Part shown: piece after piece, positions 2,566 to 48,785 of the stretch
How the letters are laid out: every line of letters starts with the position of its first letter
Position numbering within the stretch: position 1 is the first letter of the stretch
Source: Bacteroidales bacterium
GTDB lineage: Bacteria; Bacteroidota; Bacteroidia; Bacteroidales; UBA932
DNA: 64,000 nucleotides
Direction: 5' to 3'
NCBI GenBank assembly: GCA_017428945.1
Contig: JAFRPW010000027.1
Location: 7,202 to 71,201, forward strand
Made by a program: the position numbers and the translations under genes
The notes under the pieces: generated by a model
What the model saw: only the letters and a program-made list of their open reading frames with translations
The model's database searches: none
What the model was told of the DNA's origin: nothing

Positions 2566-4191
2566 TCAGTCTTCTTTAATGTTGGGGAGTTCCAGGCCAA
2601 GGCCTTTCTTGCGGTCTACCACCTTGAGCACCAGGCCAAGGATAAGGGCGGCCACGCCAAGGCAGGCAAGCATCACCAGCGGGGCGGTGTAGTTGAACTG
2701 GGTAGGATCAGTTACGCCGGGGTTGGTCTTGTCCAGAACCTTGCCGATGAGAAGAGGGAAGAGCCACAGGCCGATATTCTGAATCCAGAAAATGAGCGCG
2801 TATGCACTGCCGATAACCTTTGCATCCACCAGCTTGGGAACTGAAGGCCACAGCGATGCGGGAACCAGCGAGAAGCTTGCACCCAGCACCAGGATAGTCA
2901 CGTATGCGACGATGGCTCCGCCGATGGCATTACCCTTGAATGCAGGAAGCACGAACGCGAAGGTAAGGTGGCATGCAATGAGCAGGATTGCGCCCAGCAC
3001 AAGCATGGAAGCGCCTTTACCCTTCCTGTCCAGATAATTGCCCAGGATGGGGGTGATGAGGACGGCCAGCAGCGGGAACACCGCAAAGATGGACTCCGCA
3101 CTCTGGCGCATGTAACCCATATAGCAGTAAGCAATCAGGGCCACGATGGAAATAGCCAGGAAAATATACTGGCGGGACTTCACCTTCTGGAAATTGCTGA
3201 TGAATCCGGCGGCGGCCACAACCAGCATTATCACATACTGGACGATGGTTACGCTGGACCCGGCCCAGAAGGAGTCTGCGGCAGGCGCAGTGAGCGTAAG
3301 GTTGCACTGGAGCATGTTCACGGCATACTTCTGGAACGGGAAAATTGCGCTGTAGTAAAGCACGCACAGAAGGGCCACAATCCAGAAACCGCCGTCGGAA
3401 AGGATCTTGCCGATGTCGGAGACCTTGAAGGGATCGTCCTTCTCCTCTGCCTCTCCGGTCTGGGCGTCCAGCTTCTTGTCCATGAAGAAGTAGACGATGC
3501 ACATGATGAGGGCGATGCACATGAGGACTACGCCGAAGGCAACGCTGCGGGACACCTCAACGTGACCGCCAAGCTTTGCGAAATAGGGGCTGAAGATCAT
3601 GCAGGTGGCGACGCCAAGGCGGGCAAGGGCCATCTCGGAACCCATTGCCAGGGCCATTTCCCTGCCCTTGAACCACTTGACGATACCGCGGCTCACGGTG
3701 ATGCCGGCCATCTCACAGCCGCATCCGAAGATCATGAAGCCGCAGGCGGCGAATTTTGCCGATGCGGGCATGCCCCGGTAGAACGGAGACACTCCAAGCT
3801 CGTCGAACAGCGGTATATAATTGAGGTTGTTTGTGAACCATGCCTCAAGGCTGCTTCCCATGAAAGCAGGACTAACGGCATACCATTTAATAACGGCACC
3901 CACCAGCATCACGCTTGCGGAAAGGACAGCCGTGAAGCGCACTCCCATCTTGTCCAGGATGATACCTGCAAAGATGAGGAAGAACACAAACACGTTCAGG
4001 AACACTTCCGAGCCCTGCATTGTTCCGAATGCCGTGGAATCCCAGCCGCGGGTCTCCTGCATCAGGTCCTTGATGGGGGACAGGATGTCCATGAATATGT
4101 AGGAGCAGAACATGGCCAGGGCAAGCAGCAGAAGTGCCGTCCAGCGCATTGCAGCCGAGTCACGAAGGGTTTTCTTAACAGTATCTGACAT
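2566..4191 (-). CDS. MFS transporter (MFSD1-like)
   Basis: AGIILDKMGVR motif A, KWFKGREMALAMG, ASLWPSVPKLV; many TM segments. Confidence 0.88.
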   Translation of the reverse strand: MSDTVKKTLRDSAAMRWTALLLLALAMFCSYIFMDILSPIKDLMQETRGWDSTAFGTMQGSEVFLNVFVFFLIFAGIILDKMGVRFTAVLSASVMLVGAVIKWYAVSPAFMGSSLEAWFTNNLNYIPLFDELGVSPFYRGMPASAKFAACGFMIFGCGCEMAGITVSRGIVKWFKGREMALAMGSEMALARLGVATCMIFSPYFAKLGGHVEVSRSVAFGVVLMCIALIMCIVYFFMDKKLDAQTGEAEEKDDPFKVSDIGKILSDGGFWIVALLCVLYYSAIFPFQKYAVNMLQCNLTLTAPAADSFWAGSSVTIVQYVIMLVVAAAGFISNFQKVKSRQYIFLAISIVALIAYCYMGYMRQSAESIFAVFPLLAVLITPILGNYLDRKGKGASMLVLGAILLIACHLTFAFVLPAFKGNAIGGAIVAYVTILVLGASFSLVPASLWPSVPKLVDAKVIGSAYALIFWIQNIGLWLFPLLIGKVLDKTNPGVTDPTQFNYTAPLVMLACLGVAALILGLVLKVVDRKKGLGLELPNIKED

Positions 4192-4239
4192 TTTTCAATA
4201 AGTTTTGAGCTGCTAAGTTAATAATAATTTTTAATATTA

Positions 4240-5865
4240 CTATTTCATATAACTGTACCTGTAGTCCGTGGGGCTCACAAGGGTTTCCTTGATCACTCTG
4301 GGGATGACCCAGCGGATGAGGTTGAACTCTCCGCCGGCCTTGTCGTTGGTGCCGGATGCACGGGCGCCGCCGAAGGGCTGCATGCCAACCACGGCTCCGG
4401 TGGGCTTGTCGTTGATATAGAAGTTGCCGGCGGCATAACGGAGGCCGTGGGCAATCTTCTCCACGGCAAGGCGGTCACGGCCGAACACCGCGCCTGTGAG
4501 GCCGTAAGGAGAAGTTTCGTCGCAGAGCTTAACGGCTTCGTCCACCTTGTCATCGTCATAAGGATAAACGGTGAGGACGGGGCCGAAGATCTCCTCTTCC
4601 ATGCTCTTGAAATGAGGGTCCGCGGTCTCTATGATGGTGGGTTCAACGAAGTAGCCAACGCTCTTGTCCCTCTTGCCGCCCATCACGATCTTTGCGTCCG
4701 GGGACTGCTCCGCGTAAGTGAGATAGCCGTCGATGTTGTTCCAGGAGGCCTCGTCGATTACGGCGTTGATGAAGTTGGAGTGGTCCATGACGCCTCCCAT
4801 CTTCACCTCGGATGCATACTGCTTCATGATGCCCAGCACTTCCGGCCACAGGCTCCTGGGAACGTACATGCGGGATGCGGCAGAGCACTTCTGGCCCTGG
4901 AACTCGTATGCTCCGCAGAAGGCGGCGGTGGCGACGGCTTTTGCATCGGCAGAAGGATGGACGAAGATGAAGTCCTTGCCGCCGGTCTCTCCCACCAGAC
5001 GGGGATAGCTCACATACTTGCCCAGGTTCTCCCCTGCCTGCCTCCAGAGGCTGTTGAAAGTGCCGGTGGAGCCGGTGAAATGGATGCCGCTGAACCACTT
5101 GGACTCAGTTGCGATCTTGCCGATGAGGGCTCCGCTGCCGGGCAGGAAGTTGATGACTCCGTCCGGAAGACCGGCCTCCTTGTACAGCTGCATGAGGTAA
5201 TAATTGCTTAGCGTAGAAGTGGTTGACGGCTTCCAGAGGGCAACGTTACCCATGAGGACGGGAGTCATGCAGAGGTTGGAGGCGATGGAAGTGAAGTTGA
5301 ACGGGGTCACTGCCAGCACGAAGCCTTCCAGCGGGCGGAACTCCGTATTGTTGATGTTTCCGGCGCCGTTCTTGGGCTGCATGTTATAGATCTTGGAGGC
5401 GTAGTGGACGTTGTAGCGGAAGAAGTCTATGGTCTCGCAGGCGCTGTCTATCTCTGCCTGGTAGATGTTCTTGCTCTGGCCCAGCATGCAGGCAGCGTTC
5501 ATGATGGGACGATATTTTGTGGCCAGCAGCTCCGCCATCTTCATGACTATGGCAGCGCGGGTTGTCCAGGGGGTCTCGCTCCAGATCTTGTGGGCCTCCA
5601 TGGCTGCGTCGATAGCCATCCGGACCTCTTTTTCGCCAACCTTATGGAAAGTTGCCAGTACGTGGCCGTGCTCGTGGGGGCACACCACCTTGCCGGTGTT
5701 CCCGGTGCGGATTTCCTTTCCGCCGATGATGATGGGGATATCCAGAACGGTGTTATACTGACGTTTGAGTTCTGCGTCCAGGGCTATGCGCTCCGGAGAA
5801 CCTTCCAGATAGGATTTCACCGGCTCGTTGGCGGGCACGGGAAAATTGATGATGGCATTGTTCAT
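4240..5865 (-). CDS. pruA: L-glutamate gamma-semialdehyde (P5C) dehydrogenase
   Basis: ALDH motifs PFNF, GETGGKDF, FQGQKCSAASR, EEIFGP, QPFGGARASGTNDKAG. Start reassigned to MNNAIINFP (5865). Confidence 0.92.
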   Translation of the reverse strand: MNNAIINFPVPANEPVKSYLEGSPERIALDAELKRQYNTVLDIPIIIGGKEIRTGNTGKVVCPHEHGHVLATFHKVGEKEVRMAIDAAMEAHKIWSETPWTTRAAIVMKMAELLATKYRPIMNAACMLGQSKNIYQAEIDSACETIDFFRYNVHYASKIYNMQPKNGAGNINNTEFRPLEGFVLAVTPFNFTSIASNLCMTPVLMGNVALWKPSTTSTLSNYYLMQLYKEAGLPDGVINFLPGSGALIGKIATESKWFSGIHFTGSTGTFNSLWRQAGENLGKYVSYPRLVGETGGKDFIFVHPSADAKAVATAAFCGAYEFQGQKCSAASRMYVPRSLWPEVLGIMKQYASEVKMGGVMDHSNFINAVIDEASWNNIDGYLTYAEQSPDAKIVMGGKRDKSVGYFVEPTIIETADPHFKSMEEEIFGPVLTVYPYDDDKVDEAVKLCDETSPYGLTGAVFGRDRLAVEKIAHGLRYAAGNFYINDKPTGAVVGMQPFGGARASGTNDKAGGEFNLIRWVIPRVIKETLVSPTDYRYSYMK

Positions 5866-46367: not shown

Positions 46368-47732
46368 CTACTTGTTCAGCTGGTCGGCGCTCTGGATGAA
46401 CTTGGCCAGGTCTTCGTCGGAGACGTGGTAGTTCTGCATCTCGCCGGAGAAGTAGCTGTCGTAGGCGCTCATATCCACGAAGCCGTGGCCGGAGAGGTTG
46501 AAGAGGATGGTTTTCTTCTCGCCTGTTTCTTTGCACTTCAGGGCTTCCTGGATGGTGGCGGCAATGGCATGGCAGCTCTCTGGAGCGGGGATGATGCCCT
46601 CTGTCTGGGCAAACAGCACTCCCGCGGCGAAGGAATCCTTCTGCTCGATGTCCACGGCCTCCATGAAGCCGTCCTTCATGAGCTGGGAAAGGATGACGCC
46701 TGCGCCGTGGTAGCGGAGACCGCCGGCGTGGATGGAGGCGGGCTTGAAGGTATGTCCAAGGGTGAACATGGGGAGAAGCGGTGTCATGCCGGCCTCGTCA
46801 CCAAAGTCGTACTCGAACTTGCCCCTGGTGAGTTTGGGGCAGGAGTACGGCTCGGCTGCGATGAAACGGGTCTTCTTGCCTTCCAGGATATTGTGGCGCA
46901 TGAACGGGAATGCAATTCCGGAGAAGTTGGAGCCGCCTCCGAAGCAGGCAATCACTATGTCCGGGTACTCTCCCGTCAGTTCCATCTGCTTCTCCGCCTC
47001 AAGGCCGATGACCGTCTGGTGCATGCACACGTGGTTCAGGACCGATCCCAGTGCGTATTTGCAGTTGGGGGTGGAGACGGCCAGTTCGATGGCCTCGGAG
47101 ATGGCGCAGCCAAGGGAGCCCTTGTCGTTGGGGTTACGGGTGATGATGTCCTTTCCGGCGCGGGTGGACATTGAAGGGGAAGGAGTGATGGCGGCGCCGA
47201 AAGCCTGCATGATGGAGCGACGGTAGGGCTTCTGCTCATAGCTTATCTTTACCATGTAGACAGCGCAGTCAATGCCGAATTTCTTTGTGGCATAGCTCAG
47301 TGCACCGCCCCACTGGCCGGCACCGGTCTCCGTGGTGAGGTTGGTGATGCCCTGCTCCTTGGCGTAGTATGCCTGGGCTATTGCGGAGTTCAGCTTGTGG
47401 CTGCCGGCGGGGGATACGCTCTCGTTCTTGAAATAGATGTGGGCGGGAGTGCCAAGGGCGGCTTCAAGCTCGTATGCGCGCACAAGTGGTGTGCAGCGGT
47501 ATGCGGCATACTGCTCGCGTACGGGCTCGGGGATGGGAATCCACTGGTCGGTCTGGTTCAGCTCCTGGTCTGCGCAGGCCTTGCAGAAGATGGGGTAGAG
47601 GTCTTCCGGCTTAAGCGGCTGGCGCGTTGCGGGATGAAGGAACGGCAGCGGTTTGTTGGGCATTATGGCCTGGATGTTAAAATAATGGGTGGGGATTTCG
47701 CTCTCCGGGAGCATGTATTTTTTCTGTCTCAT
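46368..47732 (-). CDS. trpB: TrpB2-type tryptophan synthase beta-like PLP enzyme (stand-alone)
   Basis: GSHKLNSAIAQAYY (PLP Lys), TETGAGQWG, GGGSNF, HAGGLRYHG, FNLSGHG. Confidence 0.92.
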   Translation of the reverse strand: MRQKKYMLPESEIPTHYFNIQAIMPNKPLPFLHPATRQPLKPEDLYPIFCKACADQELNQTDQWIPIPEPVREQYAAYRCTPLVRAYELEAALGTPAHIYFKNESVSPAGSHKLNSAIAQAYYAKEQGITNLTTETGAGQWGGALSYATKKFGIDCAVYMVKISYEQKPYRRSIMQAFGAAITPSPSMSTRAGKDIITRNPNDKGSLGCAISEAIELAVSTPNCKYALGSVLNHVCMHQTVIGLEAEKQMELTGEYPDIVIACFGGGSNFSGIAFPFMRHNILEGKKTRFIAAEPYSCPKLTRGKFEYDFGDEAGMTPLLPMFTLGHTFKPASIHAGGLRYHGAGVILSQLMKDGFMEAVDIEQKDSFAAGVLFAQTEGIIPAPESCHAIAATIQEALKCKETGEKKTILFNLSGHGFVDMSAYDSYFSGEMQNYHVSDEDLAKFIQSADQLNK

Positions 47733-47764
47733 GGTTCGTTTGTATTAAGTGTTGATAAATAATC

Positions 47765-47830
47765 AAAAAAAATGGCCTGCTGTAAGTCAGCAGGCCACTA
47801 TAATAATAACTACGGCAAAGCGACTTACAG
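47765..47830 (-). promoter_or_regulatory. Transcription attenuator (terminator/antiterminator) upstream of trpB2
   Basis: 10-bp stem 47773-47782/47788-47797 followed by U8 on the minus strand. An alternative 9-bp pairing (47822-47830 with 47780-47788) overlaps it. Confidence 0.85.
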
Positions 47831-47875
47831 TTTTGAGCTGCAAGTGCGCCACCAGCTATTGTTGTTCTTTCTCAT
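47825..47875 (-). CDS. trpL: Trp leader peptide MRKNNNSWWRTCSSKL
   Basis: 16-codon ORF with tandem TGG TGG, ending in the antiterminator arm; below the ORF-track size cutoff. Confidence 0.85.
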   Translation of the reverse strand: MRKNNNSWWRTCSSKL

Positions 47876-47921
47876 TCTTTTGCAAAGGTGTCAAAAAGAA
47901 TTCTTTAATGCAAGAAATATT

Positions 47922-48683
47922 TTAAAAATTTTCAACAAGTGCCGCCGTGAACTGGTGAGAGGCGGTTACATAGTTGGCCTCGATGAAGGCGTTGATTGCC
48001 GTGGCGACAAACAGAAGGATGATGACTGCCGCTACAATGGTGCCGATTACCTTAAGGCGGACCAGCCACTTCTTGTTGTTCCAGCCGATGGTCTGGAACA
48101 TGCTCCAGAAGCCGTGGTTGATGTGCAGGAAAATTGCGATGAACCACACGATGTAAAAAGCGACCACCCACCAGTTCTTGAAGGTAGTGAGAAGGAGGTA
48201 GTACGGATTCTCCGCCTCGCCGCCAAGGAATTCCTGCAGCTGCATCTTTGCCCAGAAATGGTTGAGATGGAAGCAGAGGAAGCCAAGGACTATCACGCCA
48301 AGGATGGCCATGTTCTTTGCGGCCCAGGAGTCGTTCTTGGCTTTGGAGGGGACCTCGTAACGCTTGATTCCGCCGCGCTTTTTCAGGTTCTCATAGCTGA
48401 GCCAAATACCATATACAATATGAATAAGGAAGCCAAGCGCAAGGATGGGGACCATGATGTCGATGACGGGGGTGGACATGAAGTCGCAGCCAAGCTGGAA
48501 CCAGCCGTCTCCGGTAGAGAAGCGGACGGCGTCATCGGCCACCTTGCCGAATACTCCGTTCAGGGAGTCTATGACGGAGAAGAAGTTGATGGTTCCGTGG
48601 AGCAGCAGGAAGACGATAAGAAAGGCACCGGAGATGCTCTGAATGAACTTCTTGCCGATAGATGAGGTCAGGAAATTAGCCAT
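47922..48683 (-). CDS. sdhC: Succinate dehydrogenase/fumarate reductase cytochrome b subunit (Bacteroidetes type)
   Basis: SSIGKKFIQSISGAFLIVFLLLH, LIHIVYG, LCFHLNHFW, FLHINHGFWSMFQTIGW (heme His ligands). Confidence 0.85.
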   Translation of the reverse strand: MANFLTSSIGKKFIQSISGAFLIVFLLLHGTINFFSVIDSLNGVFGKVADDAVRFSTGDGWFQLGCDFMSTPVIDIMVPILALGFLIHIVYGIWLSYENLKKRGGIKRYEVPSKAKNDSWAAKNMAILGVIVLGFLCFHLNHFWAKMQLQEFLGGEAENPYYLLLTTFKNWWVVAFYIVWFIAIFLHINHGFWSMFQTIGWNNKKWLVRLKVIGTIVAAVIILLFVATAINAFIEANYVTASHQFTAALVENF

Positions 48684-48785
48684 GTATGGTTGTTTTTGCA
48701 ATTATCAATTATGCAAATATAGGAATCTTTCTTGGAAGTTTCCCAATATTTCAATACTTTTGTTTAATCGAATAAACCACACATC

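Follow-up and report, generated by a model that had tools for sequence, protein, structure and literature searches.

A Predicted Tryptophan Attenuator Upstream of a Stand-Alone trpB2 Gene in a Bacteroidales Bacterium

Immediately upstream of a monocistronic trpB2 gene, an uncultured Bacteroidales bacterium carries a short leader ORF with two adjacent Trp codons, followed by RNA segments that can fold into mutually exclusive antiterminator and terminator hairpins. Very probably this leader is a ribosome-mediated attenuator that senses charged tRNA-Trp and controls trpB2, the product of which is most likely an indole-salvage enzyme used under Trp shortage. The locus lies within a 64,000-nucleotide stretch of contig JAFRPW010000027.1 (assembly GCA_017428945.1), hereafter called the window, and all coordinates below are positions in it. 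An initial annotation, made from the letters of the window, had proposed a 16-aa Trp-Trp leader peptide, a 9-bp antiterminator exclusive with a 10-bp terminator, a U8 tract, and a distance of about 30 nt to trpB2, with no trpA or other trp gene adjacent. Our examination located every one of these elements on the minus strand, and the neighborhood check likewise revealed no other trp gene beside trpB2. The elements are as follows.

47825..47875, minus strand: leader ORF of 16 codons plus UAA, encoding the peptide MRKNNNSWWRTCSSKL
47849..47854, minus strand: tandem Trp codons UGG UGG (predicted sensor), the sole invariant 6-nt block in an alignment of 34 leaders
47838..47860, minus strand: Region 1, which contains both UGG codons and forms the 1:2 hairpin's 5' strand (from the MFE structure and covariation)
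47805..47830, minus strand: Region 2, the 3' strand of the 1:2 hairpin, pairing with Region 1 in the MFE fold (supported by covariation)
47780..47796, minus strand: Region 3, the antiterminator 3' strand, made up of the terminator 5' arm, the loop, and the first 3 nt of the 3' arm (from covariation)
47773..47797, minus strand: intrinsic terminator hairpin with a 10-bp stem and a 5-nt loop, ΔG −18.8 to −19.4 kcal/mol
47765..47772, minus strand: U8 tract, directly 3' of the terminator hairpin
46368..47732, minus strand: trpB2, intact, 454 aa, with the PLP lysine in GSHKLN and a GGGSN motif

The leader ORF runs from an ATG at 47875–47873 to a UAA at 47827–47825, with UGG UGG at 47854–47849, and the U8 tract ends 32 nt before the trpB2 ATG (47732). 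The first 17 nt of Region 2 (47830–47814), stop codon included, form the 5' strand of the antiterminator. Its 9-bp core pairs CUGUAAGUC (47830–47822), which holds the leader stop codon, with GACUUACAG (47788–47780), which consists of the terminator loop and parts of both terminator arms; the pairing reaches 14 bp once bulges are allowed. The 151-nt leader has an MFE of −46.2 kcal/mol (z = −4.46), and none of 200 shuffled sequences folded as well. As a genome-wide control (2.6 Mb), we collected 33,602 ATG-started ORFs of 8–35 aa, among which 298 encode WW and only three combine WW with a nearby terminator; the ORF described here is the only one of the three upstream of a trp gene. The arrangement of leader and terminator upstream of trpB2 is thus more than chance. 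The two other matches, considered as further trp-type leaders in the same scan, looked random and were rejected.

To describe how these segments would compete, we modeled the folding states of the leader with and without a ribosome. With no ribosome, the 1:2 hairpin and the terminator form together (−43.3 kcal/mol). A ribosome placed at either UGG codon makes the antiterminator (−18.5) the MFE structure until the terminator 3' arm has been transcribed, and a ribosome at the stop codon allows no antiterminator, so that the terminator forms. Explicit energies were −19.4 for the terminator, −17.2 for the antiterminator, and −22.0 for the 1:2 hairpin; because equilibrium slightly favors the terminator over the antiterminator, the switch is expected to depend on kinetics. 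In the mechanism that we propose, transcription would start a few nucleotides before the leader ATG. When Trp is scarce, the ribosome would stall with UGG in its A site and cover Region 1, leaving Region 2 free to pair with Region 3 once the latter is transcribed; the terminator would then come too late, and RNA polymerase would read into trpB2. When Trp is plentiful, the ribosome would reach the UAA inside Region 2 and mask that region; the terminator would then form, ending transcription at the U8 tract. Without translation, Regions 1 and 2 would pair with each other, and termination would again result. Since leader and switch stand upstream of the only trp gene, the enzyme is most likely made only when Trp is short, and it would then produce Trp from neighbors' indole plus O-phosphoserine or serine.

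A putative promoter and one neighboring gene lie upstream of the leader.

47883..47890, minus strand: putative nAnnTTTG-type −7-like box with its end 7 nt upstream of the leader ATG
47911..47913, minus strand: putative promoter TTG resembling a Bacteroidetes −33 element, located 20 nt upstream of the −7-like box
47922..48701, minus strand: sdhC/frdC-like b558 cytochrome b gene (TIGR02046, 150 bits)

The Bacteroidetes promoter consensus differs from that of sigma-70, and bacteria of this phylum make little use of Shine-Dalgarno pairing. Among 40 leaders (that of the window counted), 22 have a TTTG ending 6–9 nt upstream of the leader ATG, most commonly at 7 nt, and a TTG at the matching spacing is found in 23. 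So short a distance between TTTG and ATG suggests a leaderless or nearly leaderless ORF, and the leader peptide may be translated from such a transcript if the predicted promoter is used. The sdhC-like gene is on the same strand as the leader, has no terminator of its own before it, and is syntenic with trpB2 in many relatives. It is not adjoined by genes for a flavoprotein or an iron-sulfur subunit.

The conservation of the leader was examined by scanning species-representative genomes, which yielded 80 trpB2 loci with 74–96% protein identity, 79 of them including upstream sequence. Nearly all come from uncultured rumen and gut Bacteroidales, and the relatives in question (Alistipes sp. CAG:435, Ca. 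Egerieousia, and rumen RUG/RGIG metagenome-assembled genomes) represent what we take to be the GTDB family UBA932; NCBI taxonomy assigns one named relative no further than "Bacteroidales incertae sedis." The initial annotation had staked its reading on the leader being conserved in relatives, an expectation that held in part: an ATG-started WW or WWW ORF of 14–29 codons lies 140–320 nt upstream of trpB2 at 39 of the 79 loci and is absent from about half. A GC-rich hairpin with a T run follows 38 of the 40 leaders. Outside the Trp codons the leader peptides diverge widely, with the ORF kept in frame. At four loci (L007:2848-3000, L009, L030, and L036) an extra 100–190 nt separates the terminator from trpB2; the extra stretch at the first of these contains a unit of about 22 nt repeated in tandem, which may represent inserted small repeats.

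We aligned 34 leaders, 33 from trpB2 loci and one from a trpB1 operon, and scored the three helices against controls in which the helix was slid along the alignment. The terminator helix was paired in 91.1% of cells, with compensatory changes at 8 of 10 pairs (slid controls 28–45%); the antiterminator in 89.5% (94.3% in its 9-bp core), with compensatory changes at six of the nine core pairs (slid controls 28–39%); and the 1:2 hairpin in 75.8% (83–84% in its core helices), with compensatory changes at 13 of 22 pairs (slid controls 34–47%), figures to be read with the understanding that helices taken from the window's own sequence are favored over slid controls and that relatedness among the aligned sequences makes shuffle counts and pairing figures overstate significance, while the compensatory changes between sequence types are still plain. 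Within Region 2, alignment columns 83 and 84 covary with the positions they pair with in the 1:2 helix and also with those they pair with in the antiterminator. Covariation of the same columns with two sets of partners is the signature of alternative structures.

The position of the antiterminator relative to the reading frame is also fixed. In all 34 leaders its core begins 17–22 nt past the last Trp codon, which by our reckoning is just beyond the footprint of a ribosome stalled at the Trp codons. Measured from the stop codon's first base, the core starts at −3 to +8 nt, a position that would fall within the footprint of a ribosome terminating there. Judged from sequence, this is the spacing that ribosome-mediated attenuation needs. 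Two adjacent UGG codons within 16 codons, invariant in the 34 leaders, are thus combined with an exclusive antiterminator and terminator, a covarying 1:2 hairpin, and suitable spacing. The attenuator reading of the initial annotation is borne out by leader conservation, by covariation in three helices, and by the fixed distances to the Trp and stop codons.

The same observations bear on two other explanations of the element. If the ORF arose by chance and the hairpin simply terminated the sdhC-like gene, no Trp sensing would be involved; the sdhC-like gene indeed has no other terminator, and genomes of the same genus carry a plain terminator at this position with no leader. We consider this very unlikely, given that UGG UGG is invariant and the ORF stays in frame through very different peptides, that the antiterminator and the 1:2 helix, both needless for a plain terminator, covary, that the distances to the stop and Trp codons stay within fixed limits, that WW together with a terminator is seen in only 3 of 33,602 short ORFs, and that the same element precedes trpB1 operons with other upstream neighbors. 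A second explanation draws on TnaC-type arrest peptides, which also contain Trp residues: free Trp would stall the ribosome on the leader and the gene would be induced at high Trp. Apart from the shared Trp residues this is hardly credible for a peptide that varies outside its Trp codons, that precedes an intrinsic terminator with a competing antiterminator in a geometry fitting starvation sensing, and that is found in a genome without tryptophanase. Attenuation by a ribosome stalled at the Trp codons is the reading that we carry forward.

We built a covariance model, R1, from the leader alignment. In the window's genome R1 matched a single copy, at trpB2 (111.5 bits), and the search found no further gene under an R1-type leader there. 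We then surveyed 151 genomes from 37 genera of the window's own family, which contained the leader (by R1) in 52 cases, a TrpB2 above cut-off in 83, and trpA in 25. Judged by coordinates, trpB2 directly follows the leader in 22 genomes; trpA is missing from 19 of them, one being a complete single-contig genome (its leader seen in L106). Each of the three that have trpA carries a second leader at another site, which in one case precedes the trp operon. All further R1 matches that we examined precede trpB1-trpE-G-D-C operons or a lone trpB1 (TIGR00263, 561 bits), the latter in three genomes that lack trpA and in which unrelated genes follow trpB1. These WW leaders before a lone canonical trpB1 occur in other genera (L094:128-1453; L096:120-1492; L100, minus strand, trpB1 at 3713-4891); the unrelated genes that follow, such as nagA and one for an SsuA-like binding protein, parallel the case of the lone trpB2.

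Presence of the leader and of trpA are distributed over the 79 trpB2 loci as follows.

Leader present: trpA absent at 31 loci, trpA present at 8
Leader absent: trpA absent at 17 loci, trpA present at 23

We applied no statistical test to these counts because the genomes are relatives of one another. In the window's own genus, trpB2 occurs in five of the nine sampled genomes, and only two of the five have the leader. In the remaining three (L103, L104, and L105, from the same-genus genomes G112, G158, and G176) there is no leader ORF, and a plain terminator is all that separates the sdhC-like gene from trpB2, which indicates that the leader was lost or replaced within the genus. Its absence from about half of the related trpB2 loci further implies that regulation by the leader is dispensable.

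The gene under this leader encodes a TrpB2 enzyme by several measures. Its product passes the cut-offs of NF009057 (693 bits, cut-off 366) and TIGR01415 (589 bits, cut-off 519) and scores only 148 bits with the canonical TrpB model TIGR00263, and its nearest solved structures are the archaeal TrpB2 proteins 6hul_B and 4qys_B, with which the PLP lysine and GGGSN motifs align. It is the only trp gene that we detected in the genome. In this assembly, a draft of 47 contigs that is 96.8% complete, searches for trpA, trpC, trpD, trpF, a chorismate-binding enzyme (trpE), and TrpB1 found none, and all control genomes were positive. Nor did the genome yield a credible tryptophanase, the best matches being weak and aminotransferase-like (≤31 bits), which makes self-made indole unlikely, or an indole or Trp transporter of the Mtr/TnaB permease type. 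With no other trp gene and no credible tryptophanase, the organism is predicted to be unable to make either Trp de novo or indole. The initial annotation had guessed at a possible auxotroph, to be checked against the trp genes of the genome; the absence of trpA, trpC, trpD, trpE, trpF, and TrpB1 from this 47-contig, 96.8%-complete draft supports Trp auxotrophy.

Loss of the rest of the trp pathway, together with the lack of a tryptophanase, makes indole salvage under Trp starvation the most likely role of TrpB2. Other bacteria of the rumen and gut produce indole in abundance. In published experiments, TrpB2 of B. thetaiotaomicron rescued an E. coli trpA mutant only when wild-type cells cross-fed the mutant, indole being the cross-fed compound that the authors suggest (PMC11535334). 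TrpB2 enzymes have high affinity for indole, and O-phospho-L-serine has been reported as their co-substrate (PMC11917138, citing Hettwer and Sterner 2002 and Busch et al. 2014). The initial annotation had TrpB2 making Trp from indole plus serine, and it is the serine part of that claim that fares less well, the co-substrate reported by Busch et al. 2014 being O-phospho-L-serine, according to PMC11917138.

It is also conceivable that the attenuator is real and that TrpB2 serves something other than the conversion of indole to Trp, such as indole detoxification, deamination of serine or phosphoserine, or synthesis of another β-substituted amino acid. What TrpB2 does outside trp operons is a long-standing matter of debate, our search of this genome detected no indole or Trp transporter, and trpB2 persists without the leader in some relatives. 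Such a role strikes us as unlikely: a sensor built of Trp codons reports a shortage of Trp-tRNA and fits a product that supplies Trp, the homologous leader governs trp operons and a lone trpB1 in the same family, trpB2 is the last trp gene in the genome, and published data (PMC11535334, PMC11917138) tie TrpB2 to high-affinity indole use.

With indole salvage as the preferred role, we lean toward a broader picture in which a large family of Bacteroidales from rumen and gut, most of whose members would be Trp auxotrophs, contains lineages that lost the trp operon and each kept one attenuator-controlled last-step enzyme, trpB2 or trpB1 according to genus; starvation-induced salvage of community indole would then be conserved in the family, with TrpB2 as its dedicated high-affinity enzyme. 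If this is true, the long-debated role of stand-alone TrpB2 could be argued directly from regulation and studied in a testable system. In genomes that have lost the other trp genes and are predicted to be unable to produce indole, the placement of a stand-alone TrpB2 under a predicted sensor of Trp-tRNA shortage is regulatory evidence that this enzyme supplies Trp from external indole, and the pairing of leader and trpB2 suggests that indole is cross-fed within rumen and gut communities.

The switch itself is not new, since it follows textbook attenuation and Bacteroidetes leaders were catalogued in 2010. It is a known mechanism with a new target in a new context, and its pairing with a lone TrpB2 is the useful part; a literature search covering journals outside subscription found no paper on a leader-peptide attenuator of a Bacteroidales trpB2. 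The catalogued family is the Bacteroid-trp motif, reported as a presumed attenuation leader controlling trpB and trpE (Weinberg et al. 2010, PMC2864571, Additional file 1). Its model, RF01692 (gathering threshold 49 bits), gave no match at E ≤ 10 in positions 47000–48600 of the window or in the whole genome, so that membership by score is ruled out. As a positive control, it scored 83.7 bits upstream of a trpB1-trpE operon in Bacteroides luti (L082:1501-1640); sub-threshold scores were obtained on the trpB2 leaders of four related genomes (28–37 bits), and two of the searched genomes had trp-operon leaders scoring 36–43 bits. The model of the enterobacterial Trp leader, RF00513 (gathering threshold 41 bits), aligned with the window over its full length at a sub-threshold 30 bits (E = 0.0012) and reached 33.9 bits on a relative's leader (L002); with scores staying below threshold, membership in RF00513 is likewise ruled out.

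The alignment places the element more clearly. The Bacteroides luti leader (L082:1515-1580) and its downstream RNA align column by column with the window, and with the trpB2 leaders generally, through all three helices, which establishes homology to an accepted RF01692 member across the leader, the 1:2 hairpin, the antiterminator, and the terminator. The element also has the makeup by which RF01692 is recognized, a short Bacteroidetes ORF with at least two conserved UGG codons in a hairpin upstream of a trp gene. On these comparisons we regard it as a diverged relative of the Bacteroid-trp leader that falls below the detection threshold, and not as a new kind of leader. RF01692 thus misses a large diverged branch of its own family; of the 151 sampled genomes, 52 have the leader by R1.

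Compared with the Bacteroid-trp leaders, then, the element belongs to the same phylum and has the same short ORF with two or three UGG codons in a hairpin, followed by a terminator. RF01692, however, models only the leader and a loosely conserved 1:2 hairpin, and the family was described on biosynthetic operons, whereas the gene downstream here is a monocistronic trpB2 with the rest of the pathway absent. The enterobacterial trpL (RF00513) shares with it the placement of tandem Trp codons in region 1 and of the stop codon at region 2, along with the 1:2, 2:3, and 3:4 pairings and a U tract, and the decision is predicted to be kinetic as in E. coli trpL, where the antiterminator wins by forming first. 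In contrast to trpL, which comes from another phylum and controls trpEDCBA, the window's leader ORF is probably nearly leaderless and without a Shine-Dalgarno sequence, and it controls a single predicted salvage gene.

The closest physiological parallels are indole-salvage remnants, Trp auxotrophs that have kept the last step alone. In Chlamydia, the trp genes are regulated by the TrpR repressor. The genital strains of Chlamydia trachomatis retain trpBA, and gut-microbiome reconstructions include an indole-fed Trp variant of the "last step only" kind, the "A1" variant with TrpAB only (PMC9026213). In these cases, as in the one described here, the presumed source of indole is neighboring microbes. 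Unlike them, the genome of the window has TrpB2 alone, without TrpA, and places it under what is very probably a leader-peptide attenuator.
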